Part shown: positions 27,085-63,828 of the stretch, in pieces
How positions within the stretch are numbered: the first letter of the stretch is position 1
Layout of the letters: each line of letters starts with the position of its first letter
NCBI GenBank assembly: GCA_001938485.1
Contig: MQRK01250511.1
Span: forward strand, 1-64,000
DNA from: Girardia tigrina
Lineage: Eukaryota
Reading direction: 5' to 3'
Length of the DNA stretch: 64,000 nucleotides
Notes under the pieces: generated by a model
The model's database searches: none
The model's input: the letters and a program-made list of their open reading frames with translations, nothing else
What the model was told of the DNA's origin: nothing
Program-made: the position numbers and the translations under genes

Positions 27085-28675
27085 CACGGGCGTAGCCAGC
27101 AGAATGCAGGTGGGTTAAGCCCCCCTAGAACAGATGTCAGCCAACCATAAAATATTTATTTTGATAAATTTCAATAGAACTTTTTTAAAGAAAGCAATGA
27201 GAAACAGAATTTTTATCAGTTCAATTCATGAAAAACCGGACACATCATGAATTTGCACACATCAGCAAACCATCACACTTTCTCTTATAGCAGCACTCAA
27301 TCTATTTACCCACTCCCATAATGCTCTTTTCCTACACCAATTCTTTATCATAACTGGGCACAGAAAGAAGTAGAAAGGGATTAACAACTAAAGAAAGAGA
27401 AGTAATTGAAGAATAAATACGCTTTACATATATTCACGCCAACCACAAATGAGAAATAATATAAGAATAATAATGCAGAATAAAACATTTCGTTTCCCTT
27501 AGAATAATCATCCTTTAAAGGGAAATCTTGTAGTGGTAAAGAGCTATTTGGAAAAACATGCTCATTTCATGAATTGAACTGATAAAAATTCTGTTTCTCA
27601 TTGCTTTCTTTAAAAAAGTTCTATTGAAATTTATCAAAATAAATATTTTATGGTTGGCTGCACACACGCACGTACTCAGACCACATCACTATGCACACAA
27701 ATCTACGTCTGTTGTCTGAATTATTGATTACATTGTGTATGTATTGGTGTATAGCTTTATATGGTGAAAGGGGTTTAATTTACACATTTCTTACTTGTTT
27801 GAGTGATAATTTACAATCATTATGAATAAAATTTTAATTAGCTTAAATAAAATTCATCAACAGCCCCGTTGCAATTACCCATTCCACCTACTCTAGCGTC
27901 TTTGGTTGTATCTGCCGCATGCACGTCTTCGTCATCAGTGCAAAGTAGCTCTGATATATCAACTATTTCAATACCAATCCTCTCTTCTGCAAATCTAGAG
28001 AAAAGAAGTTATCCTTAAAACGAAGATTGTTTGAAATTGTTTTAATGGTTGAAGTACTTTGAAGATCGAGATGCTGCACTTTGTTATCCCTGTCGTTTTT
28101 TTCAGTTATAAGGAAGGAATGAAAAAGCTTTTACTTCCCTAGGTTTTATGAATTAGAAGAAAGTTCTGGACAATGAGAGAGTATTTCCAAATTATGAGTC
28201 CAGTGAAGTTCATCAATGAGCTATGATGTTATGACATGAAAAAGAACAGCGCGAACAAAGAGGACTTTCAGGGACAACTCTATTGCATGCCAAGGTGCTG
28301 AGTGATAGCAGATACTATTTGCAATCCATTTGTGACATCATTTAATTTCTTGGTTTGAGCAATGAAGAGTAATTCAGTGGTAAAGAAGAGCGACAACGAA
28401 GTGAAACTTAAAGTTTAAGAGATCATCACGCAATCAACAGGGCATTTAAGTGGAAACACCAGTGAGTCATTACAAGCAGCATAGTGTGAGACGATATATA
28501 TTGTTTGCAGTGAGATTAATAGAAGATTTCATGATAATAAACTTCTGACGAGGATATCATATAAATAACCTGGAATTCCTTAAATTAAAACATTTCGTTT
28601 CCCTTGGAATAATCATCCTTTAAAGGGAAATCTTGTAGTGGTAAAAAGCTATTTGGAAAAACATGCTCATTTAGA
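27085..28675 (+). mobile_element. Rearranged hAT-like remnant
   Basis: Left terminus CACGGGCGTAGCCAG, an internal inverted duplication and weak transposase-like remnants. Confidence 0.45.
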
Positions 28676-37502: not shown

Positions 37503-37764
37503 AATTAATTTTTGTTTAATTTTATCAAAATTAATGTAAAGTTTTATATTAATTATTTATATATTTTATTATAAAAAAGTTTAGACTAATACTATTTTAA
37601 TAAAATATAAATATTTTTAAAAATAAAAACAAACATATTAAAACAAATTAAAAATATTTATATTTTATTAAAATAGTATTAGTCTAAACTTTTTTATAAT
37701 AAAATATATAAATAATTAATATAAAACTTTACATTAATTTTGATAAAATTAAACAAAAATTAAT
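37503..37764. repeat. AT-rich palindrome, ~117-bp arms with a ~27-bp spacer
   Basis: 37503-37620 is the reverse complement of 37648-37764. Confidence 0.9.
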
Positions 37765-38155: not shown

Positions 38156-38867
38156 GTAAGTCAATGTTAAGTTATTTGAATGGATATATTTTCATTAGGT
38201 AATATTAAATATTATTGAAGTTAGATATTTTTATAAATATTATTAAATATATATACCGTAGTACATGATGTGAGATTTTAGTTTTTTCAAAAACATTCAT
38301 GTTTCATCATGTAAAATATACGTAAAATGTATTTTTTTTATAAAAAATATATTAAATAAAGAATTATTAAAATTTTTTTAAAAATATTTATTTAAATATT
38401 TGTATTAATTGAATATACTGCTTTTTATTTAATTAAATGTAAATCCTCGTTTATAACAGAAATTTTGATTTGTGATTTACTGATTTTATAATATATATTG
38501 ACCTTTATTTGGGATAAAATTGTTTTACTTCATTCAGTATTATATTGGATGTTATAAAACCATGTTTGGAATGTGCAGTTTTGTGTAGAGTTGAGTGATT
38601 ATTAGTATTGTGATTATTAAATAGTTGAAATTATTTTTTATTCCAGATTTGTTTAATTTGCTCAAAAATTGTGATTGTGAATTGAGAGCTACAAATCTTG
38701 ACTTTGCTTTGAGAGTTAAAATGGTGGTTGCAATGTGTTTTGTACCTATTGCTCATTTAGAAACAAACATCAGTGTGAGACAGAATTGTTTTAAAAAAAT
38801 TTAATTGAAAAAGTAAAATTAAGTAAAACTTTCAAATTAAAGTCTGTTAATTAAAATATGTATTTTC

Positions 38868-39580
38868 TGTTGTATATTAGATATTTTGATTATTTCAAAT
38901 ATTTAATATATGCCTTTTTGATAAATATTTTGTTTGAATATTATCAATTAAACATTGTTTTGAAAATAAACTTTTCGAGTGTTACAAGCCATCCGGGCAT
39001 AACGAATGATATGAAAATCGTTTTGGAGTTTTTGGAAAAATTCGATGGAAGCATCAGCTTCGAGATTTGGCAGAAGAAATTTGAAATGGTAATGAAAATC
39101 CAGAAGATTACTGATCCAGCCCCGTATCTCCCCTTTTTACTATCGGGGGTTGCACTGAACATATACATGGAATCGGACGAGAAGACACAAAGCAGCTGTG
39201 ATCGGTTCTTCAAGTTACTAAACAACTCGTTCGGACTGACTAGACGTTCTGCGTATAGTCAATTGATAAACTTACAGTATCACGAGGGCGAGACTATCGA
39301 TGAATATGCGTCTCAGGTGAAAATGTTAGCAACAAAGGTCGACGATCTAACAAAGGCTGCCTTCATGGCTGGACTGCCTTTCGAGTTGCAGGTAGATTTG
39401 GAACGCGCCGGCGACCAACCCCTGACCGAAATGATTGAGTATAGCCGCAGGTATTTGGGGATTAAAAAGGGTTTATTACAGGGTTTAATTGCAGCAATAC
39501 AACACGGAAACAACAACAAATATTTATCAAAAAGGCATATATTAAATATTTGAAATAATCAAAATATCTAATATCCAACA
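38868..39580 (+). mobile_element. 713-bp LTR-derived unit with inverted ends and 5-bp TSD, carrying gag
   Basis: TGTTG...CAACA ends. 63-bp inverted repeats (62/63 identical) at 38868-38930 and 39518-39580. TTTTC on both sides. Putative LTR 38868-38986 (TG...CA, AATAAA). Confidence 0.85.
39011..39553 (+). CDS. Gag capsid-like ORF, 180 aa, no zinc knuckle
   Basis: MKIVLEFLEKFDGSISFEIWQKKF...GETIDEYASQVKMLA...AFMAGLP. Paralogous to the 44092-44775 ORF, which is followed by a CCHC knuckle. Confidence 0.75.
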   Translation: MKIVLEFLEKFDGSISFEIWQKKFEMVMKIQKITDPAPYLPFLLSGVALNIYMESDEKTQSSCDRFFKLLNNSFGLTRRSAYSQLINLQYHEGETIDEYASQVKMLATKVDDLTKAAFMAGLPFELQVDLERAGDQPLTEMIEYSRRYLGIKKGLLQGLIAAIQHGNNNKYLSKRHILNI

Positions 39581-41138
39581 TTTTCCTTTGTATTTGAATT
39601 ACATGAAAAAAATTACATGAAAGAAATTACATGAATTGTGAGCGAATAAATGTATGATATGGAAAATGTTTTGATGTATTTTATAGGCAGTGTATTTTAA
39701 AAGCACAACATGATTTTATCCGAAGGAGAAAGTAAAATTTTCTATTTGACATAATTGGATTATAAATTTCTAAATGTTTTCATAAAATATTACTGTTACC
39801 ACCAGTTTAATTTTTCAACTTCTCAATTTCAAAATTTTTTTTAACGAACAAACTCCTTATAATTTATTATTAAATATAAATACCACGTTATTTCAATTTG
39901 AATTACTGACTGAACTCTTTTTTTATAATTTTTTATTTTAGAAAAACATCACGATAAAAGTCTTGGCCTTCTCATTTGAAAAACCAAAATCAAACAACAG
40001 AATTTCAAAATGTTTATTGTGTTAGATATATTAACAAACAAACGTACATAATTTTTTTCGGAGAAAAAAACAAAAAAATAACGAAAAATATGCGTATGAG
40101 GGGTTAATTTTATATTTTTATCTCGCCTGAATAGTTTATTATTTTTTTAATTTAAAGGGTAAAATATTTTTATGTTAATTTGCTTATTAAATATTTTAAA
40201 AAAATTAAAAATTATATAATAAAAGAAAATCANNNNNNNNNNNNNNNNNNNNNNNNNNNNNNNNNNNNNNNNNNNNNNNNNNAAAAATTGATTTTGAAAA
40301 TAAAGTTTAAATAATTTTTTGAAATAAATTTTCGAAATAAATTTTCAGGGTTTTAAAAATTAAATCGAAAAGAATTTATTAGATTAATTTGGGTCGAGAT
40401 AATTAAATTAAATTAACAGGAAAATTTGTTTTAGAAATGTGAATTGTTATAGTAATAAATTTTTGGTGTTAAATTATGGCTTTAGAATGTGATAATAATG
40501 AAAGTGGCATAAACGCTACTTACAATGCGGTTTATATTTTTGAAGTGCATTTCAATTTTTTATATTTTAAAATATGGAAAATAGAAGGAATTTTTTTAAA
40601 TCTTACATGATTATTATAATTTATAAAAGATTTATTCTGGAAAATATCGCTGCGCGTGTAATTAAAAGTTTTGGACGCTGCTTTAAAAATCAGTGCGCGG
40701 ACATACATTTGCACAGCTTGGAGGGGACTTTGATCATTACATATCCCATATAATCCTACTGTTCTTTTATAAGGACATAAAATTGACGCCATATGAATAA
40801 GTAAAAACAAATAATAAGAAATAATATAATATATTACATGACTGTGAGAAATAATTGATACGAAACTGTTGAAAATTCTTGTCATTTGGTAAAATTTATT
40901 GGTGTTTCAATCACATGTCTTTTATGAGCAAAAATGTGTCGGGTTTGAATTGGATATTTTTTTGTATATATGGTATGTTTTTTTAGAGTATTGCTTTTCC
41001 TATCGTGAAGGTTGATCAATATATTTAATAGTTTCAATCTGCAAATGTAATTCTAAATTTAATACTAAATTTATTTTAACTAAATTTGTTGATGTACTAC
41101 TTTTAATTATTTCAAAATTTCAATGTCTCATATTTAGT

Positions 41139-42301: not shown

Positions 42302-42791
42302 ATGAAAACTGAATCTTATCCACCGAAATCGAATCCGAGAATTTGAGAGAAATCTAAAGTAGAAAAGACGAACATTAAACCGACGAATATTGCAACGCTT
42401 TTGGACAAGAGTACGCGAAGCACTGCTTCTTCTTCTTCGGCAAAGTCGACTCGAACGACATTAAAATCTAAATTATTGAAAATCCAAGAATCTCTAATAT
42501 CTCCGTCAATTTCCGAGTCGAAAATCGAAAAAGAAAGACAAATGATAGAATTCTTGCTGCGGCAGGTGCACCCAGACACTGGCATCTCTGGAAAAGCCAT
42601 ATCGATCATGATAAATTCCGTGAACGATGTGTTTGAGCAGATTGCAAGTGAGGCTAGTCGATTGGCGCATTACAACAAGAAGTCGACGATCACGAGCAGA
42701 GAGATTCATACGGGAGTGAGATTGCTGCTTCCGGGGAAAGTTGGCTAAGAACGCCGCAAGCAGAGAAAGACATACGTCCCTCTTTAGAGCC
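42302..42791 (+). pseudogene. H2B: Histone H2B variant pseudogene with degenerate 3' stem-loop
   Basis: [60 protein letters not shown]. Early stop at 42344, frameshift after LLPG, C-terminus lost. GTCCCTCTTTAGAGCC at 42776-42791. Confidence 0.9.
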
Positions 42792-43919: not shown

Positions 43920-44927
43920 TGGTTATCAAATTTAAAACTGAAATCTAACCGACTTGTTGTTAACAATGACAGTCATGGTTGGCAGCGCCGGAAATGTCAA
44001 AGGGAGAGAGCCGGCGCCTACAAACTCTCCTGTCCGTTTCCCGACTTGCAATATTTTGTAATATGTCCAACTTGCTTACATTTATAGCAAATTATTTGTC
44101 ATTAGATTGCCGCTGAGAATTTTCATTACGGTTTACCCTTGTTTGTACCAGATTTCCGTCATGTGGCACACGGGTTTTTGTAAAGGAACTCCTTCTATCG
44201 CTGCTAACCTCACCTCGTTCTTTAGAAACGATCTTTCCATCACCAACGTTTTGTACCGCTGACATTGAACTTTGTGTGACGCATTTTTTAATTCCTAAAT
44301 ACCTACGACTATATTCAACCATTTCGGTTAAATCTTGATCTCCGACCTGCTCTAAATTCAATTGCAACTCGAACGGCAATCCAGCCATAAAGGCCGTCTT
44401 GGTCAGATCGTCGATTTTTGATGCCAACATCTTTACTTGAGAAACGTAATCATCAATAGTTTGTCCTTCGTAATATTTCAAATTAAGCAGTTGGCTGTAC
44501 GCAGATCGTCTGGTTAATCCGAATGAATTGTCCAAGATTTGCAGTACTTCTTCACAGTTGCTCTGTTTCTTTTCATCCAATTCCATGTATATATTTAAAG
44601 GAACATCAGTCAACAAAAAAGGAAGATATGGGGCCGGATCCGAAATCCCCTGGATTTTCATAATCATCTTGAACTTTTTCTTCCAAATTTCAAAACTGCA
44701 GTTTCCATTAAATTTCTCCAAATGATCGAGTATAATTTTTAAATCGCTTTTCATTGCCCGGATAGCTTGTAACAACGAATCACAAATCTATTAAAATTTA
44801 TTTTTCACTAACAAATACTTTTAAAAATAGATATTATTTAAACAAATAATTATCTATATTTTTTCATGTTAAATATTTCATTTAAGAAATAAATTTAACG
44901 TGTAACGTTTAATTTAAAAAATTAACA
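43920..44927 (-). mobile_element. 5' part of a Gypsy-type LTR element: LTR (44768-44927), PBS-like site, gag with CCHC, start of protease
   Basis: TG...CA LTR on the minus strand. Gag ORF 44092-44775. Frameshifted CYKCKQVGHITKYC knuckle, then ALPTMTVIVNNKSV. Confidence 0.8.
44756..44767 (-). promoter_or_regulatory. Putative primer-binding site AGCTATCCGGGC
   Basis: Directly abuts the LTR end. Conserved (11/12) at 38987-38998 in a copy whose LTR sequence has otherwise diverged. Confidence 0.65.
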
Positions 44928-46884: not shown

Positions 46885-47609
46885 CATATATTTTTGAATT
46901 TGTCCAAATGCTGATAATCGATAATTTTAATAGCGCCTCATAAATATTTTATTGATTTACATTAAGAAATAAATCACTATTGAATCATTTTTGAATATCT
47001 CTGTGGAGTCTGAAGAAAATATGAAGAAAAATCTGTTTTCTTTTGTAACGTATAATAAATAATGAAGATCCACCATACTTTAGTTCTTTTGTTGTTTATT
47101 CTCTTATTTTAAATGTCGATTTGTGTAAATTCAGTTTTATTTTTAATCTTAATTTTTATTTTTTTTAATCATAATAAAATTTCTCCGTTTACATTTTAGA
47201 AAATGTAGTGTCTTATATCCGGATGTTTATACACCATAAATAAAAAATAAATGAAAATTTTACTGGATAATTATTTTATATAAATTAATTAGTTTCGATA
47301 TTTAAAAAAACATCCTCAATTGGAATCATATATTAAAACTGGTTTAATAGAAAATGTGTCATGTTACATTCGAACTGGCAATAATCTGTCTTGAATCAGT
47401 TTCAGTGACACTCTTGGCAAATCGTTGTCTTCCAGACGTCAAGCGAGCTCGCGTCTCGCTTTTAATGTTAACCAATTTTATTTGTTCAGTTATTACTTTG
47501 TTTAATTTGACAAAATTATTTTTTGTTTTAATTAATTATATTAAATTTTATTGTTTCATAAATTCATTTTATTAGAACATAATATTTTGCATTCAATACA
47601 TTTATTGTA

Positions 47610-50600
47610 CATTTATTGCATGAAACTGTACCCCATCCATCAATGAAACGTTCTTGTACAGGATTACCCTAATGAGAAAGTTGTGCTCAGCACAGCCATC
47701 ATGCGGTCCTAGACTCTTCTGCATCGGGTGTGGGAGTTCGTGGAATTCAATCCACTCATTCAATTGGTCTCTTAATAGCGTTGCCAGAATCTTATAAGAA
47801 CACTCTAGCAACGATATCGGTCTCCATGAGGAGATTTCTCTATATTGACCTTGTTTTCCCTGTTTTGGAAGAAGAATAGTAAAAAACTTCTTCCAACTTT
47901 TTGGCACAACTCGGCTGTTAATGATCCTATTATATAATTTAGTGAAAATTACTCCCACTAGATCACAATACAACATATCTTTATATGTTATATTTGAGTA
48001 ACCAGGGGAGGAAATATTCGCTTTTTGAAGTGCACTCACCACCTCTCCACTCTCCACTTCTTGTAACTCAAATGAATCTCTCCTTTTCATCAAAAGGGTG
48101 TCCAACAGTTCACTGATCGGTGGGGCAGTTGATTTGGAGCTAAAGTGCTCCACAATTGCCTCTGTTGATGGTGTAGTGTCTGCAATAGTGTTGTGCAAAA
48201 TTAATTGAACCACCTTCCTCGGATGATTCTTATACATCTTCCTCAGGCCGGGATCCTGATTGGTTGACTCATTAGTGATATTTCCCATGTACAGATTTCT
48301 CCTTTTTATGGATCTGTGAGATTATATATACATAGTTATATCCTTCTCCATCATGTCTGGGTCAACCAATGCTGGGCGGATCTCAGTAAATGTGATTGAT
48401 CTGTCAACTCTTTCTGCACGAGTTGCTACAAGAGTAGCCCGATCCTACTTTTCTTTGGTCTTTCTTCTTTGCTCTCAACACAAACGGCACGATCTTCTGT
48501 TTGATTTTTTGTACATTAATATCGAACAAATCTCAGTCCTCCATGAGAGCATGAATAAATCCACACACCATCAGCCAAGTTTCTCCACTATTTCTCACCA
48601 GTTGGTGAGGTTGACCAAACACATTGATCTTCATTTCTCTTTTTGTGAGACACAAATGTTCAATGTATTTTGCCTCCATCTTCATCCTTGCCAGTAAACC
48701 TTCATCAATTATATCTGCTGTCGAGTCCAGTACTGATATATGGTGCTGCACTAAGTCTGCAACAAACAGCACCCATTTCCTGTTGTCAACCAGTGACGGC
48801 ATGTAGATGAACTCCTTCTCAGCGAAACTGTTAAGGTTAACAAGTTTTCTGAGAAAAGCCACACTGTCCTTGCTTATTGGAGTCGCAACAACTGGCTTAA
48901 CTGTAAGGTGTTTGTTGCTCAATGTGTACGCATTGATAAACACCGAGAAGTGATTTTCTGTGAACGATAGATATTTCTGTAATGAATTGTCCAGTGGAGC
49001 AGCTCCAATTCCAATCATTTTTGGAATATTCTCGTCAGTCGGAGTCATTTCCACAAACTATCTCATACTCCTCACAGCCATTGTTGGATCCTCCTCCAAT
49101 CCATCTTCTACCAATCCAGCTGAATATATGCATACAAATGGACCGCAATCATAATCGTTGTTCTGATATATGGCCGGTACACACTCGCTATCAAACTCTA
49201 GGGGGCGATCAAACAAGAATTTGTTGATAATACCATGGAGCTTCTCTCCCATCGCCATTGTCTCATTCTTCAACACGCTCTCTTTGTGGGGGTGGAATAT
49301 AATGGCAATTCCATCTTCTATCGAGACTCCATACAAGACCCAGTGAGCATTGCGCACATTTAATGGGCAGAGCAAGAAGTTACATGAATTCAGATATTGT
49401 TTTTCAAAGCCCATGAATTGCTTAACTCTACTTCTGTTGTTCAACATGGTGTTGGAGTCCACTGGGCTCACATATTCTTCTGTCACCAGAGCTACATGGT
49501 TTCTAAAGTAAAAATCAATGTGCTTACTATTAAACCACATTGAGTTGACTGTTGTCATCACCTTTGGAACCTGCACACTCTCTATCATGCATTCATCATC
49601 CACATATGAGAGTGGGCAATCCATCCCTGCTTTTGTTGATGGGATTGACTCATCCGGTCATTGTGAGAATTTCTTTGTTTCTGGAGATTGTTTCTTCACT
49701 ATTTTGCCCTTCTTGTCAACAAGAAAGAACCCATCTTCATACAAAACATCTATCATCTCCATCTTCTTCTTCACCAGGCCTGGTTTCTTTTCTGACTTAA
49801 GAATCGTTTTAGAAACCGGTCCTGGTCTCTTGGTGTTCTTCACAACTGTTGGTGGTGTCTTTGAAGTCACTAACCCCAGGTGGTGCCTCATTCTTTTGTA
49901 TTTGTTGTGTTGATCGAGACGCAGGTGATTGAGTGAAGATATCCTGAACCAAGTGAGCAGTCTGTGATGTTCGTTTGTTCTCAATCATATTTTCCAAGTC
50001 CGGTGTGATTGAACCCTTTGGAATGTAGTCTTTACTTGATGTTAGGTTGGGAATTATCATCCATTTTAAATCAAAAAGAAATTAAGACTTGCAAAATTTA
50101 TTAATCTACAACAGGTTAAATTTGTTATTTAAACAAATTTTCATTTTTTTTATTTTCTTTTTTTTAATTCTATTTTCCATTTTTTTAATTTCGATTATAA
50201 TTCGAAATTTTTAAAAACTAAAATTCTTATTTTCGAAAATTAAAAAATTAACAACGACACTCTCTTACACTTGATAAAGGTTCTTCTTCTGACGAAGGAA
50301 AAGATGTAGTGCTCGAATCCATACAATCAAACATTGGTGGTGGTATAGTTCGATTATATGAGATTGGTGAGCTCACAATCTCAACATCAGCATTCTGTTC
50401 CTCTTCATCTTCAGTTTCATCATTTTATGTTCCTGTCTTTCATCAATTCTTTGGCGAAGGTGACTTGATAACTCCTCCTCACACACCGAGGTGCCCCATC
50501 AGCTTAGGAGCTCCTCTAGGACAGCTGAACGAAACTTTTCAGGTTGTCCGCCTCTCATAAATACTCCGTCCGTTGTAACATTCACCAAGTTAGAGTAATG

Positions 50601-55074: not shown

Positions 55075-55715
55075 NNNNNNNNNNNNNNNNNNNNNNNNNN
55101 NNNNNNNNNNNNNNNNNNNNNNNNNNNNNNNNNNNNNNNNNNNNNNNNNNNNNNNNNNNNNNNNNNNNNNNNNNNNNNNNNNNNNNNNNNNNNNNNNNNN
55201 NNNNNNNNNNNNNNNNNNNNNNNNNNNNNNNNNNNNNNNNNNNNNNNNNNNNNNNNNNNNNNNNNNNNNNNNNNNNNNNNNNNNNNNNNNNNNNNNNNNN
55301 NNNNNNNNNNNNNNNNNNNNNNNNNNNNNNNNNNNNNNNNNNNNNNNNNNNNNNNNNNNNNNNNNNNNNNNNNNNNNNNNNNNNNNNNNNNNNNNNNNNN
55401 NNNNNNNNNNNNNNNNNNNNNNNNNNNNNNNNNNNNNNNNNNNNNNNNNNNNNNNNNNNNNNNNNNNNNNNNNNNNNNNNNNNNNNNNNNNNNNNNNNNN
55501 NNNNNNNNNNNNNNNNNNNNNNNNNNNNNNNNNNNNNNNNNNNNNNNNNNNNNNNNNNNNNNNNNNNNNNNNNNNNNNNNNNNNNNNNNNNNNNNNNNNN
55601 NNNNNNNNNNNNNNNNNNNNNNNNNNNNNNNNNNNNNNNNNNNNNNNNNNNNNNNNNNNNNNNNNNNNNNNNNNNNNNNNNNNNNNNNNNNNNNNNNNNN
55701 NNNNNNNNNNNNTAA

Positions 55716-55756
55716 GACGACGCGTTTCGAGATAATAATAATCCCATCATCAGGTC
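55716..55756 (-). ncRNA. Minimal hammerhead ribozyme, intact core
   Basis: gac-CUGAUGA-U-GGGAU uauuauu AUCUC-GAAA-CGCG-UC-guc. Confidence 0.8.
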
Positions 55757-56268
55757 ACAAAATGCACTAAGCAAGTACACTATATGGAAACTTGCCGAAA
55801 ATAAATAAAATTTATCCAATAAATTATTGGACGAAAATAAATTTATTTCACTTCCTTAAAACTAAGAAAAATGCACTAAATGCAATCAATCTCATTCTCG
55901 CAAACCAACCATTGGCAGCTATCAATTGCCATTTGAAAAAACGATATGTTTTCTCTATCGTTCCGTACTTTACAAGGTAACGGAGACATATGATAAAGAT
56001 GACAACTAACAGCACTCCAAAAGTTAATCTTTGAGATGAAACTTCTCACACTCAATACAATCAACTCAATTTTAGCCTTCCCATCAAATCCAAAACAATC
56101 CGAAATCTCATCGATGCAATTTGACGGAAATGCCTGAAATGGAAATCTGAGAGAACGTTGTGTTCTCTCAACTGTACCAGGTTTGACGCTGGTGACACTC
56201 AGGATAATAACACATTTGGCCAAGTTTCGGCAAGTTTCCATATAGTGTACTTGCTTAGTGCATTTTGT

Positions 56269-56309
56269 GACCTGATGATGGGATTATTATTATCTCGAAA
56301 CGCGACGTC
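56269..56309 (+). ncRNA. Hammerhead copy with cleavage triplet GUC mutated to GAC
   Basis: Identical to the 55716-55756 motif except T>A at 56305, the conserved U16.1 position. Confidence 0.7.
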
Positions 56310-56324
56310 TTATTTCTATCCCTA

Positions 56325-58109: not shown

Positions 58110-61100
58110 GCCTCCCATCTCTGTAATGGTATTGAGCCTAAGGCTCTTTAGAGGGTCCACCCAAACTAAAGTCCTTAAGGGCCCCCCGATAGATCTCCTA
58201 CGGGGTCAGTGGCCTTCCGGCTCTGAGCAGTCGGCTTGCCAGTAACGAACGACCAACCATGGAACTTGGTACCATGGCCGTACATGCCGTTGGCTGTTAC
58301 GGTGGACGAGTAACAACCGCGAAATGGGCACTTGAATTGTCCTCTTGCAGTCTTGTAATCGGCTGGCAGCGGTATTGTAGGTGCGTCTCTTCGGCATCGT
58401 CGTTCAGCTGTATCCTCGGCATACTCACAGTTGCGTCCGGCAAATGAGGATTGGATTGGTTTGATGTCGGCTCTTCCTCGTTCTCTTCTTCCAAGTTTTC
58501 TTCTCTCTGGGCGTTGGATGTTGGCGCTTCTTGATGATTCTTCTGAATATGAATCCTTAGGAAACCAGTGGTCTTGTATTCCCTTGAACAGTGTTGACAT
58601 TGATATATTCCTTTCTTCTGACGTGGCTGGGCTTTCTACTCTCTCTTCTTCCACGGGATTGGCTCTGCTCTTTGGTGATCTCTTCTGAGATGCCTGTTTA
58701 ACTCCTTCACTTTGTAACAGGCATTCATCTGGCAGCTGTGTTCTTTCAGACGAGGTAGCACCAGTATTAGTGTTTGCTCGTCCCCGATTCTTTGAATTCT
58801 CTTCAATCGGAATACTTCCTCGATCTTTTCATCCATCTTCAGTAAGTTTTCCTGCAGAACGTCTCTTTTAAATTCACCGAAACTGTACTCGGTTCCAAAG
58901 AGCCAGTGAGCATCCACTCTGAGACATTCTACCAGATGTTGCTTTCTCCGACCGCTGATCTTCTTTCCTCCGATGAGTTCGTATCCACTGATCTGCTTGA
59001 CGTTCTCTGGAATTCTCCTAAATCGACCTTGGTATTGTGTACGATTCTTCTTCGCGCGATGATATCCATTGGGCTTTGTAGTCCAATTGATATCTCATCT
59101 ATCCTGATCCTTTCGACTTTCGAAATACCCAAAGTTCGCCGAGTACATAGATTGTGAAATGCTTTTAGCTTTTTCACGTGTACTTCATTTGTCCTCCAAT
59201 TTTCACAGCTGTAGTAAACCACCGGGAATACACAGCTGCTAATTATGTTCTTCTTATTCCGGAGAGACAATTCCAGAGAGACAACAAAATTCAACACTGG
59301 TCTGATCGTCCGTAATTTCGCTGCTCCTTTCTGAATTCTGGCTTTGATGTCCTTACCTGAGCTTCCTCCACTTTCAATTATTGATCCCAGGTAGCAGAAT
59401 TCGTCCACCCATTCTATTCCGGTATTCAGCTCGTCTCTTGCCGTAATGTACTTTGTTCCATTGAGATTCAGGATCTTTGTTTTCCCAATGTTGATTTTGA
59501 GCCCCATATTCAAGAACACAGTGTTGAGACACGTGAGATTCCGTTCGATATTTCCATAGTCTTCGTCCAGTAAGCACAGGTCGTCTGCATAAGCAAGTCT
59601 GTTCACGGTCAGCTCTTCCCCATTGTATTTTAGTTTCACACCACCTGATAGTCCTTCTTTGATCGCGATCTTAATTACATGATCAAAGACAAGGTTGAAT
59701 AGTAGAGGACCCAATACGCAACCCTGACGGACTCCTTTGTCCATACTGAATTTATCCTTTCCAATGCTTCCCGTGAAACCTTCATGANNNNNNNNNNNNN
59801 NNNNNNNNNNNNNNNNNNNNNNNNNNNNNNNNNNNNNNNNNNNNNNNNNNNNNTACGCTGTCAAATGCCTTTTCAAGGTCGATAAAAATAGCAAATACGT
59901 TTATGTTCCGGTATCTGGCCTCTTCTTGTATCTTTCGTAAGATACCAATCGCGTGCGCAGTGCTTCTGTTTGATCTGAAACCAAATTGCCAGTCATCCAA
60001 GATATGCCTCTAGGAATATGCCTCTATAATTATTCAATTCCTTCTTGGAACCCTTTCCTTTGTATAGGATCACGACTTTCGCCGTTTTCCAAGCCTCCGG
60101 GAATTCTGCTCTTTCCTCCCATATGTCCACGAAACATTGCTGTATCTTCTCAGTCAACTGGAGACCGCCCCCTTTATATAGCTCTGGAATGATACCGTTG
60201 TTTCCAGCAGCTGTACAGTTCTTTAGTTGTCCAATAGCGGTACCTACTTCTTCTACGTCCGGTGAGTGGTCTCTTTCGAATGCTTGGCTCTGTTCGATTT
60301 CCACGAGATATTCTCTTTTGCTTTTTCTGAATAGATGTGAGAAGTGCTCTGCTAACACTTCGTCCTTCACACTGCTTTGTACAGAACAGAGAGAGGATTC
60401 CTTCGTTTATCTATTGCAGAGAACACTGAGCTCCGTGTATAACTCAGAAGTCTTGCCTATACATTCTCTGTTGAGAATTCCTTCTATTTCTTGTACAATT
60501 CCCTCAATCCTCTCTCTTTTCCATTTCCTGAGATGCCGCAAGGTGTTTAGTCTTGCAGCCTTCCACGTCGAATATGTTCTTTCACATTTATTCTGAATGT
60601 ATTCTTTCCTTCGCTTCCATTTCTCCTGCAGTAGTGGTTTCAGCTCTTCTATGTGTCCATGTAGCCACCTCTGATTGAGTGGGACTTTTTTCTTTCTGTA
60701 TCTTTCTGAAGTCTTCAAAATGACCTCCACATCATCCCAGTTCTCGACATTCGGACAAGCTTGTCCTATGTCACTACTGATGGCCACTTTGTTGTTCTGC
60801 AAGGAGAATCTGTCAATTTTTCCTTTTCCTTTCTTTCTTCTATCATTCGCCAACTTGAGTACCTTATTGTTGTTGGTGATCCATATCGTTAACACGACTA
60901 AGTCGTGGTCAGAGCCGCAGTCAAAATTCGGGTAGGTTTTGACATTGCTTATCCTGTTGCATCTGCTCTTTTGAGACAGGAATAAGTCCAGTAGTTGTCT
61001 TTTTCTCGTTGCCGGGTATGTCCAGTTAGTTCTCTGCGCCAACTTATGTTTGTAGAAGGTGTTCTCTACTCGTAAGTTGCACGCGTCAGCAAGATCTATT

Positions 61101-61871
61101 AAAAGATCTCCGTTTTCTGATGTTCCTGTTGAACTAGTATAACACCCGACAGTCTTTCCGTTTTCCTCCGTCCAATTAAGTCGACAGTTGACGTCGCCTC
61201 CAACTATCAGTTCGTGTTTCCTCTTATCAGCCTTAGTCGTCGCCCTTTCGACATGTTCTTGCAGTAATGCGAAGAACTCTTCCTTTTCCTTACTTGAGTG
61301 TCCGCTGTCAGTCGGAACGTATACCCCCACCACTGTGATCGACCTTTGGGGTATATGACAGAGGAACACTCTCTCACTGATCACTTCGAATTCGATGTTC
61401 ATTGAATCCCCAGATTTTATCATCATGGTTACGCCTTTCTCCCTTATGCTACTCGTACTGCCACTATGATGGATCCTCCAATCCCCGAAAGAGGCAATGT
61501 CGGTTCCGATCCAGTGCGTCTCTGTGAGTATACACATATCAATTTTCAGTTTTTCGAAAATACTGACGATGTTTAGTACCTTTTCATCGGTTAAGCCTGG
61601 AATATTCAAAGTTCCAACCCTCAGTTCACTGCAAGTGGAATCCTTAACGAGGGATCCCCCTCTCGGGAGCTTAATGACTTTGGGTACTTCCAGACCCCTT
61701 GTTTGAGTTTTAAAAGCTATGTATTAGCGAAGGATAGGGTTGCTAGCCCCGTCGGTCCGTCCACTCATTTAGCCTAGATCAAGGGGACCCCCATTCTATT
61801 TCTACAAAGGGAAGAGACCCTCTTTCTAGTTCCCAGGATACACCACGGGGAGGCGAGTGACACTGTATCCC
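58110..61871 (-). mobile_element. Near full-length RTE-clade LINE (APE endonuclease, RT, C-terminal C2H2-like finger)
   Basis: APE motifs GTLNI, ILTETH, VYVPT, VGGDVN, LLDLF and SDH. RT motifs NYRGI, QFGFRSNRST, FIDLEKAFDSV, GVRQGCVLGPLLFN, YADD and FCYLGS. C-terminal CPFRGC...GH...H. A few frameshifts and one gap. Confidence 0.93.
61761..61871 (-). ncRNA. HDV-like self-cleaving ribozyme at the LINE 5' end
   Basis: P1 GGGAUAC/GUAUCCU with G1.U wobble; P2 UCACUC/GAGUGG; P3 GCC/GGU; L3 UCCCCGU; P1.1 CC/GG; P4 closed by CUAG/CUAG; J4/2 GCUAAAU with the catalytic C at 61772. Confidence 0.92.
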
Positions 61872-61872
61872 T

Positions 61873-63828
61873 TACAATGACATCGCAGTCAATGTCGCCG
61901 AAATGCCAGTAAATCGAGTTTTCAAAGTGATGCACTGCTTCGGATTAGAGGCGAAAGATCTAGTTCCCATAGACGGCGGTCGAGTGTTAGGTCTCTTGGT
62001 TAAGGTGGACAAAGGTGGGAAATTACGGTGGCGCCGTGACGGAGAAGTTCCATTACTGTCAGAACAAGTCCCTCGCCCTAATTTATTCACGTGGACCGGT
62101 CGGTTGGTGAGACATTACCCGGTCTGTGGTTGGTTATGGCCGGCGTGCAGCATCATCAAAAGGATAGCCAGCGATTGTGGATGGGACATAGTTGTGGAAC
62201 CTTAAATTGCAGAAATAGCTTGGCAGTTGGCGCACCGGGTCTAAACGGAAGATCCAGTCAAGGGCGAATTGGAGGTACCACAAATCAAGAGAGAGCGCGT
62301 GTGGTGCGACACAAGCTCGATTGCAGTCGGTATATGCGTCGAAATAGGCGGCGTTGTCGTCGAGGACGCCTGATGGTTGCGTCAAAAAGACGACACTAAC
62401 CACATCAATTTAGCTGAGTAGGACGCCGCAAACCGTGCACTCAAAGAGGGAGTCAAATGGGGAATTCGGGAATCGGAATTATTAACCGACTCAGCAACAG
62501 TTACCAAATGGCTCTCATCGACACTGTCGGGACGCGAATCGATTAGATCTCAGGCACTCAGTGAGATTCTAATCAGGCGGCCGGTAGGCCTATTTAAGCA
62601 AGTCGTCGAGGAAGAGAAATTGAAAGTCACCACAACACTGGTCCGATCAGAAGAAAACAAAGCGGACGCGCTGACTCGAGTTTTAGCCAGCTGGTGGACG
62701 TTGGCGAGAAATCCCGCAGTGGCAGCAGCAGTAACTGTCAGAGGTCAATGTGAATCAGTGGACGGTCTTCAGCAACTCCACGAAATGCATCATTTCGGAG
62801 TGAGAAGATCGATGTTCCTAGCTAGAAAAATATGGGGTCCGGCCAAGGTGTCAGAAGACCAAATCAGAGCAGTGATTCAGGAGTGCGAGCAGTGTGCATC
62901 AATCGACCCATCGCCAATTCAGTGGGAGAAAGGTGATGACGGGGTAAGGATATTGTGGATCCGAGTTGCTGTGGATGTAACACATGTTGGGGCGGCAACA
63001 TTTCTGACCATGGTGGACTGTCGCCCCGGGCGATTTATGATATGCGCCAAATTGCGATGGAAAGTGAAGCGGACATCTGTTCCGTAATGAACAGCGTCCG
63101 GAACGAATTCGGTCCACCAGAGGAAGTAATTCTCGATAACTATTTCACTTTCAGGGGGTCGGGCGTGTCGAGATTGTTAGAACGAGTGGGTATTGAAGCT
63201 CACTTCAGATGCATGAACCGTCCGAGCGGAAATGGAATTGTGGAACGCAGTCACAGGACTATTAAACGAATGGTTGCTCGGTGGGTGAAATGGTTGCGTG
63301 GTATAATGCAACGCCAAACGCAAGTGGCGTCATTCCAGCCTCAACTATCTTTGCACACAGACGGAGGCTATTATTGCCGAAGGTATTCAATCTCACTAAC
63401 ATCAGTCGGGGTCGAGAAATACGAAGTAAGGTATTTTGAATCGGAGATGAAGTATTTGTGAAACCGGCACCAACGTATTCGTGCATGTCACAGTGAAGAC
63501 GCGCAACCATTACCGGGTTGCACTTGCCGCATCAAGTGGAAGTCGACAGCAGACCCTACCACGTAAGTCACGTGCGATTGGCCCCACCCGCGGCAAGCAA
63601 TGATGATGTCGGACGAATCGAGATCAGGGATACGGGCGATCTGCGTGCGATTAGTGAAAGTAACGATCGAGACGGGCCAGAAAGAGCTGGTGGGGCGGCC
63701 ACAAAGAGCTATTCGCTGTCTAGCGAGATTCGTGGAATTCGTCTGTACTGGAATTCAAGCCAGTGTCGGTGATCGGGTCCCCCCTGCTCAAGTGATATCT
63801 ACTTGTGTGTCTTGAGGACAGGAGGGCG
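61873..63828 (+). mobile_element. Gypsy-type pol 3' part (RNase H, integrase) and polypurine tract
   Basis: VWCDTSSIAVG...HINLAE...LTDSATV...NKADALTRV; HEMHHFG...CEQC; VAVDVTH...ILDN...SGNGIVERSHRTIK. Purine tract at 63814-63828. Confidence 0.9.

Follow-up and report, generated by a model that had tools for sequence, protein, structure and literature searches.

Insertions of ordinary Ty3/gypsy-like retrotransposons have long terminal repeats (LTRs) with TG...CA ends, a primer site behind the LTR, a gag gene with a capsid region and a 5-bp target-site duplication. Inverted terminal repeats occur on another group of gag-bearing retroelements, DIRS, which use a tyrosine recombinase and make no target duplication. 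Reduced forms exist as well, among them TR-GAG, which are non-autonomous LTR elements. TRIM and TR-GAG elements are small, lack pol and have an LTR, a primer site and a gag remnant (for TRIM see the accessible part of PMC10886601), but both keep two direct LTRs and the polypurine tract, which are needed for reverse transcription. Among elements with terminal inverted repeats (TIRs), Ginger1 and Ginger2/TDD have, according to the accessible part of PMC2836005, TIRs of 40-270 bp starting with TGTNR; Ginger1 makes 4-bp CCGG/CCGT duplications, animal Ginger2 makes 4-bp duplications in RTATAY, and in TDD-4/5 the duplications are 5 bp long. Here we describe a 713-bp unit (positions 38868-39580) in a stretch of 64,000 nucleotides from Girardia tigrina (contig MQRK01250511.1, positions 1 to 64,000 of the forward strand), which will be called the window.

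The unit shares with ordinary Ty3/gypsy-like insertions the TG...CA LTR, the primer site, the capsid-region gag and the 5-bp duplication, but it carries an inverted 63-bp piece of the U3 part of the LTR and lacks pol, the zinc knuckle and the polypurine tract. Thus, of the features by which LTR retrotransposons are recognized, TG...CA ends and a duplication of 4-6 bp are present, whereas two direct LTRs and a polypurine tract are absent, and this absence also separates the unit from TRIM and TR-GAG elements. In contrast to DIRS, it has integrase-type ends and a 5-bp duplication, and no tyrosine recombinase gene was found in it. It differs from the Ginger elements in that its ends are the LTR of a live retrotransposon family and its target, TTTTC, does not suit Ginger1 or animal Ginger2; no transposase was found in the unit.

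The 713-bp unit and its parent family

The unit starts with TGTTG and ends with CAACA. Its left part is a complete LTR of 119 bp (38868-38986, + strand) with TG...CA ends, the U3 end leftmost and an AATAAA at LTR position 98. LTR positions 1-63 form the left arm of an inverted repeat (38868-38930, +), and the same 63 positions, inverted, form the right arm (39518-39580, - strand), with the U3 end outermost; 62 of the 63 positions are complementary. The left arm has a private letter at position 6, and the sole mismatch between the arms is best explained by a change that occurred once the unit was in place. TTTTC stands on both sides of the unit (38863-38867 and 39581-39585, both +), the right one being present also on contig 7 of sequencing run X1. 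When flank lengths of 1 to 9 were compared, the two sides matched only at 5. The length, the ends, the arms, the TTTTC copies and the 119-bp LTR had all been described in the original prediction, made from the sequence alone, and all were confirmed. The same prediction had cautioned that TTTTC might match by chance in AT-rich DNA: the probability calculated from flank composition is 0.0024, and the 5-mer is present at 7 of 1707 flank positions. At the right end there is no direct LTR, and the inverted U3 is preceded by gag sequence and not by a polypurine tract. The joint between gag and the inverted U3 (39518-39520) shows an exact microhomology of 3 bp, or 6 bp if a one-base slip in an A run is allowed, and its place is also marked by loose contig ends behind 39519/39520. 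The surrounding DNA is AT-rich, eukaryotic and full of transposon remnants; Rfam gave no match in the window.

Inside the unit, a gag-derived stretch (39002-39520, +; PF03732) comprises the capsid part only and is cut at 39520, before the zinc knuckle. The 180-codon open reading frame (ORF) at 39011-39553 (+) consists of 170 gag codons and 10 codons read through into the right arm. It matches PF03732 (Retrotrans_gag) with an E-value of 5.5e-05 and 23.8 bits, slightly below the cut-off of 24.1. The first start codon of the relatives (39002-39004) has been lost in the unit. The closest relative of the ORF, P0002, matches 94% of the query at 98% identity and extends to a CCHC knuckle. In all ten members of the 90% identity cluster gag continues past the joint (eight reach the CCHC knuckle and two stop shortly before it), and none of them has the final ten residues of the ORF. 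Because the cluster members run on and the last ten residues are read-through of the arm, the ORF is a 3'-truncated gag and no complete small gene. An uninterrupted 180-codon ORF stopping in the right repeat had been noted correctly before, but the description of the unit as a gag-only element does not hold. No longer form of this gag was found in the search, which is weak evidence. A dN/dS estimate had been suggested earlier; of 13 differences examined at coding positions where the unit departs from the family majority, 10 are synonymous and 3 are not (these are the differences listed, beside 48 others, and positions at which the window letter is common were left out). This bias agrees with selection in the active lineage and is uninformative about selection on this copy.

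To place the unit in its family, contigs from 4 of 24 listed runs (X1-X4) were aligned to it; the joints discussed below are those among the rows listed. Small shares of sequence words were also present in aquatic, sediment and leaf-litter runs, which did not enter the analysis. The unit represents the 5' part (LTR, primer site and cut gag) of an LTR retrotransposon from a very abundant family, with the inverted 63-bp U3 attached. In organism A (run X1) the summed contig depth was 0.6-2.0 million in bins of the element and 48-475 in bins of the right flank, a measure that does not equal copy number. In the parent family the polypurine tract abuts the LTR, and gag has a CCHC knuckle; P0005 reads from the polypurine tract through the LTR into gag. 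Loose ends behind 39580 were found on 30 X1 contigs and 15 X2 contigs. In the consensus of the X1 ends, whose agreement of 0.46 is what mixed flanks would give, the first letters are the complement of a purine tract; the same tract is visible at one X2 joint. As the polypurine tract adjoins the TGTTG end in other copies, this end is the U3 end, and both tips of the unit are therefore U3 ends. At LTR position 47 both arms carry the window letter, whereas 98.8% of the depth in X1 and 99.3% in X2 carry another one. A rare allele common to both arms indicates that the arms come from one minor sub-lineage.

Some further observations concern the family as a whole. Private rearranged copies are frequent, with 13 of the 14 joints listed occurring in a single run. 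The X2 joint 39580/39087 and the X1 joint 39509/38951 mark further derivatives at single-copy depth; the former looks like a very short, TRIM-like copy with an internal deletion, in which early gag is followed directly by polypurine tract and LTR. The X2 joint 39078>39548 was taken as a chance alignment (one side is 21 bp long, and nine letters fit either way). P0002, P0005, P0006, P0008 and P0009 show stop-free read-through from the polypurine tract through LTR and primer site into gag, contiguous on their contigs. This contiguity could reflect collapsed assembly, one-LTR circles, or tandem arrays with a common LTR, and the AT-rich LTR is perhaps open in the gag frame by chance. Runs X3 and X4, which carry two other organism labels, contain the family at about 95-98% identity (38400-40100). 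X3 also matches the left flank (38546-38713) and thus probably comes from a close relative of the host.

Origin of the inverted U3 end

Two U3 tips, an exact 5-bp duplication, a microhomology joint and arms of the same minor sub-lineage were observed together, and quite probably they are the trace of a single faulty complementary DNA (cDNA) of the abundant family, inserted by the family's integrase. In the mechanism that we propose, drawing on established knowledge of reverse transcription, a strand would switch template at the microhomology while the element is reverse transcribed in one particle. The plus strand started at the polypurine tract might halt after about 63-67 nt and then resume by priming on gag RNA. 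Alternatively, the plus strand might, while still being extended, leave gag for free strong-stop DNA and copy back to the U3 end; one copy cannot separate these two routes. The product, having two U3 attachment ends, would then be integrated whole by integrase with the usual 5-bp stagger. The original prediction had the unit integrated as one piece by two U3-type ends, in line with the position of the polypurine tract next to TGTTG in other copies and with the exact duplication, and of the two options it offered, the one-off aberrant strand transfer is the one we favour. The copy is a retrotransposition dead end, with no pol, polypurine tract or direct 3' LTR and with an altered primer site. 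Autointegration was ruled out, the inner joint being at U3 position 63 and not at a CA end. For a printed precedent of such an inverted-U3 insertion, the literature listings contained nothing relevant.

The same outcome, i.e. two U3 ends, one 5-bp duplication and a microhomology joint, is predicted if two cDNAs each donated a U3 end to one integration and the inner ends were joined later by microhomology-mediated repair, and retroviral integrases are known to perform two-donor integration in vitro. Both molecules would, however, have to come from the same minor sub-lineage, and one of them would have to be trimmed to 63 bp. We prefer the strand switch in one particle because it explains the shared sub-lineage and the 63-bp piece together, and consider two cDNAs a highly improbable source.

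The shared allele and the duplication also bear on the idea that the unit was rearranged after insertion, either from two ordinary insertions facing each other, by a deletion and with TTTTC matching by chance, or through a template switch of replication within one element. The abundance of the family lets close pairs in opposite orientation arise, a scan selects look-alikes, and TTTTC is common locally, as the count given above shows. Nevertheless, such an origin needs a flank match with a chance of 0.2-0.4% plus two adjacent insertions, each of them with an allele found at about 1% of the depth, while a switch within one element needs a second jump exactly onto the CA end. We regard rearrangement as unlikely.

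The question of one event or many copies was approached through the depth left for the letters that distinguish this copy. For the window letter at 38990 this depth is at most 359 in X1 and 81 in X2, at 39003 it is at most 579 and 104, and at 39215 it is 0; single flank contigs have depths of 63-101, so that two private letters stand at about single-copy depth. A second copy of the unit was seen neither in the window, nor in the ten cluster members, nor among the listed contigs. It had been proposed that the unit might represent a TIR-like family mobilized by a Ginger-type transposase, that is, an amplified non-autonomous family, originating in an LTR element and mobilized at the DNA level by an integrase-like enzyme of the Ginger/TDD type, by which LTRs were converted to TIRs. 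Inverted ends of 63 bp starting with TGTTG do fit the length and the TGTNR start of Ginger TIRs, and the 5-bp duplication has its parallel in TDD-4/5 (accessible part of PMC2836005); moreover, the depth near the joint is compatible with some tens of copies. TTTTC, on the other hand, fits neither the Ginger1 nor the animal Ginger2 duplications, the joined tail is missing from all ten cluster members, the letters at 38990, 39003 and 39215 are at single-copy depth or below, and X4 contigs, absent over 39540-39596, nevertheless show gag continuing at 39517-39520. An amplified family is thus distinctly unlikely, and this part of the original prediction found no support.

Several points weigh against a single faulty cDNA. 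At 39490 the depth left over for the window letter is 6385 in X1 and 919 in X2, which is the room for some tens of copies mentioned above. Contigs drop rare variants, contig depth is no measure of the copy number of the joined form, and private letters could mark one copy within a family. The exact microhomology is just 3 bp. Among the contigs listed for the four runs, none crosses the left outer or the inner joint. The right outer joint is present on a 445-bp X1 contig without differences and at a depth of 101, but this contig extends only 25 bp into the element (31 were asked for to call a joint bridged), and X1 is possibly the source of the assembly and hence not independent. An empty site, for which a search had been recommended, was not seen in these 4 of the 24 listed runs, where missing cover proves nothing.

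The gaps in contig cover bear equally on the suspicion that the unit is an assembly artefact, a mis-join of a collapsed high-copy repeat. The scaffold has nine runs of N, the family is very abundant, and the inner and left joints lack a listed contig. Yet the 3-6 bp common to both sides of the inner joint are too short for a mis-join in an assembly graph, the X1 contig matches the right outer joint without differences, the left arm has its own letter at position 6, and the outer flanks yield an exact duplication. An artefact seems to us very improbable, and a single insertion of a faulty cDNA is still the reading that we prefer.

The primer site and the 5' end of tRNA

The second finding concerns the primer site, which lies flush behind the LTR (38987-38998, +) and is complementary at 11 of 12 positions to nucleotides 1-12 of the transfer RNA (tRNA) tRNA-Lys(TTT); the unit has an off-family letter at 38990. 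The tRNA sequence used for the comparison is that of Table 1 of PMC4688932, a source accessible in part. A decayed copy of a sister family (44021-44772, -; 72% DNA identity over 529 bp), consisting of an LTR end, a 12-nt primer site and gag, carries AGCTATCCGGGC directly after the CA of its LTR (44767-44756, -). This 12-mer is complementary without mismatch to nucleotides 1-12 of tRNA-Lys(TTT); the site of the 713-bp unit differs from it at one position. The gag of the sister copy has a stop before the knuckle, and the copy has no inverted end. With up to 3 mismatches allowed, the 17-mer formed by LTR end and primer site has two occurrences in the window, where 0.08 would be expected. A PBS-like site, i.e. 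one resembling a primer-binding site, had been noticed behind the LTR by the original prediction, which had missed the match to the tRNA 5' end. Three known modes of priming were considered and rejected: the site does not begin with TGG, the complement of CCA, as canonical priming by the tRNA 3' end requires; it is not complementary to a tRNA anticodon loop; and for self-priming of the Tf1 type the longest complement in the element's own LTR is 3 nt, the site folding only on itself. In the sister copy the same self-complement test gave 4 nt (the 12-mer shifted by two bases). A 16-mer of LTR end and primer site was searched in viral contigs, where all nine matches were due to chance, with no gag beside them.

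A profile search yielded 630 gag relatives at E-values up to 0.001, of which 150 were listed and examined. Some gene calls begin upstream of gag and thus translate the primer site. Besides P0002 there were 149 listed relatives; the alignments of 145 reached the model's start, and 32 had at least 8 residues upstream. In 22 of these 32 a peptide fitting ACA-AGCTA-N5-GC in one of three frames was found, whereas 2000 shuffles gave a mean of 0.49 and a maximum of 4. The pattern was set after five of the peptides had been viewed; without those five the count is 17 of 27. The remaining 35,426 residues contain 26 matches to the patterns, and only one to the two stricter frames. Two proteins have a loose first match, but a strict match also adjoins the gag start in each. 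The peptides fall into five variants: TSYPG/QAIRA (3), QANRA (1), TSYFG/QAISA/HKLFR (9), TSYRG/QAIAA/NKLSR (7) and TSYHG (2). Ten of the 32 are without a match, three of them having near matches (QAIAG, QAIAM, ISYFG). Because different frames converge on the same bases, the motif appears to be kept at the level of DNA, with a varying middle. The clade proteins concerned are P0035-P0183, the distant relatives being read as peptides and not as DNA.

The complements of three variants, with two bases added, were also scanned in viral contigs. Of 120 loci per variant, 58, 20 and 12 had the complement at position 1 of a predicted tRNA, and at no locus did it lie at another place inside one. The tRNAs of viral contigs are phage or bacterial ones, mostly Thr, and thus show the shape of a tRNA 5' end and not the primer of the host. 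The second and third scanned variants presumably match animal tRNA-Phe, and we take the QANRA variant to match a tRNA-Lys(CTT). The 12-nt site complementary to tRNA positions 1-12 is hence shown as DNA for the parent and the sister family, while peptides suggest it for the distant relatives. As a matter of sequence, the match of the clade to tRNA 5' ends is well supported, and it is possibly already known to curators of repeats.

In the tRNA, the partners of the site are the 5' strand of the acceptor stem and the beginning of the D arm. As tRNA position 13 does not pair with the last base of the LTR, a primer would have its last nucleotide at U12, flush with the LTR, which would require cutting or trimming. 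On balance it seems likely that in the parent family and the wider clade the minus strand is primed by a 12-nt 5' piece of a tRNA, produced by cutting or trimming behind U12. That priming occurs at this site is deduced from the location of the site, no other being present; against the proposal it must be said that no primer RNA was observed and that the tRNAs compared are not the host's own. The mechanism envisaged would involve invasion of the acceptor stem by the site and a cut of the tRNA after U12, which would resemble the cut in the RNA of Tf1 but occur in trans.

Two described systems come close to this mode. According to the accessible part of PMC4600332, Tf1 and Tj1 are primed by a cut 5' segment of their own RNA, and their site is likewise short, flush with the LTR and paired with an RNA 5' end that requires a cut; here, by contrast, the pairing is with a tRNA 5' end, and the complement in the element's own LTR does not exceed the 3 nt given above. 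Ty5 and Drosophila copia, both Copia elements, use, as far as the accessible part of PMC10886601 describes them, a 3'-truncated tRNA instead of the CCA end, as in the proposed mode, but they pair at the anticodon loop, whereas the present site pairs with positions 1-12 and belongs to a gypsy-like clade. It is conceivable, though we put it forward tentatively, that reverse transcription in a large and widespread clade of compact LTR retrotransposons is primed by the first 12 nucleotides of host tRNAs, and that this would be a fourth and so far undescribed mode besides 3'-end, anticodon-loop and self-priming; the tRNAs concerned would be of Lys types, shown or likely, and presumably of Phe types. 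A primer site for tRNA positions 1-12 was not described in the literature covered, including the accessible text of PMC7472051, PMC10886601, PMC4600332 and PMC13524379, a weak negative to which supplements, most subscription papers and Repbase Reports did not contribute. The main texts of PMC2774666, PMC6238403, PMC5408684 and PMC4402516 have no passage on primer sites. In the method of PMC13524379, as given in its accessible part, primers were searched with tRNA 3' ends only.

Related elements, other features and implications

Behind the gag of the sister copy there is a GGGAAAC site at 44042, together with a GC-rich hairpin (-17.2 kcal/mol). Both point to a -1 frameshift into pol, which ends abruptly near 43940. 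None of 119 Pol proteins matched the stretch behind this gag, and scans of metagenome, viral and genome contigs revealed no related loci or longer proteins with the family's own pol. P0166, a distant gag relative, is a gag-pol protein of 1178 residues in which protease, reverse transcriptase (RT) region, DUF7047, RNase H and integrase follow one another. For the RT-RNase H part of P0166 there are 761 relatives, most of them lying on contigs of 3-4.5 kb; the named records are from Hydra, a mantis shrimp and a leafhopper. The family appears to be linked to the P0166-type Pol clade, whose elements are compact and have DUF7047 in Pol, by gag alone (E 1.5e-11). A broken pol remnant at 61876-63586 (+), with the end of RT, RNase H and integrase, is about 39% identical to P0166, a likeness that points to a third family of the same wider clade in the window. 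Atlas searches returned generic gag and RT clusters.

The window contains other elements as well. A perfect 117-bp inverted repeat with a 27-bp spacer (37504-37764) is AT-rich and has no TG...CA ends. Two small elements resembling miniature inverted-repeat transposable elements (27138-27660 and 55713-56312) have near-perfect TIRs of 96 and 88 bp, unrelated to the LTR. A histone H2B-like frame (42347-42748, +; PF00125, E 2e-13) has an unusual N-terminal part and is possibly a pseudogene or a variant. Remnants of non-LTR retroelements lie at 47602-49657 (-) and 58175-61723 (-), one of them with a Ulp1-type protease domain upstream of RT.

The insertion can be viewed as a readable scar, indicating that a cDNA with two U3 ends can integrate in vivo. 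Insertions of this kind would be raw material for the conversion of LTRs to TIRs, although one dead copy is no proof of such a conversion. If the proposed priming by tRNA 5' ends is true, it would be a new priming mode, involving an unusual cut by the RNase H of the element or by a host nuclease, and very short 5' tRNA fragments would gain a role. It would also explain why searches made with tRNA 3' ends only would class these elements as primer-less.

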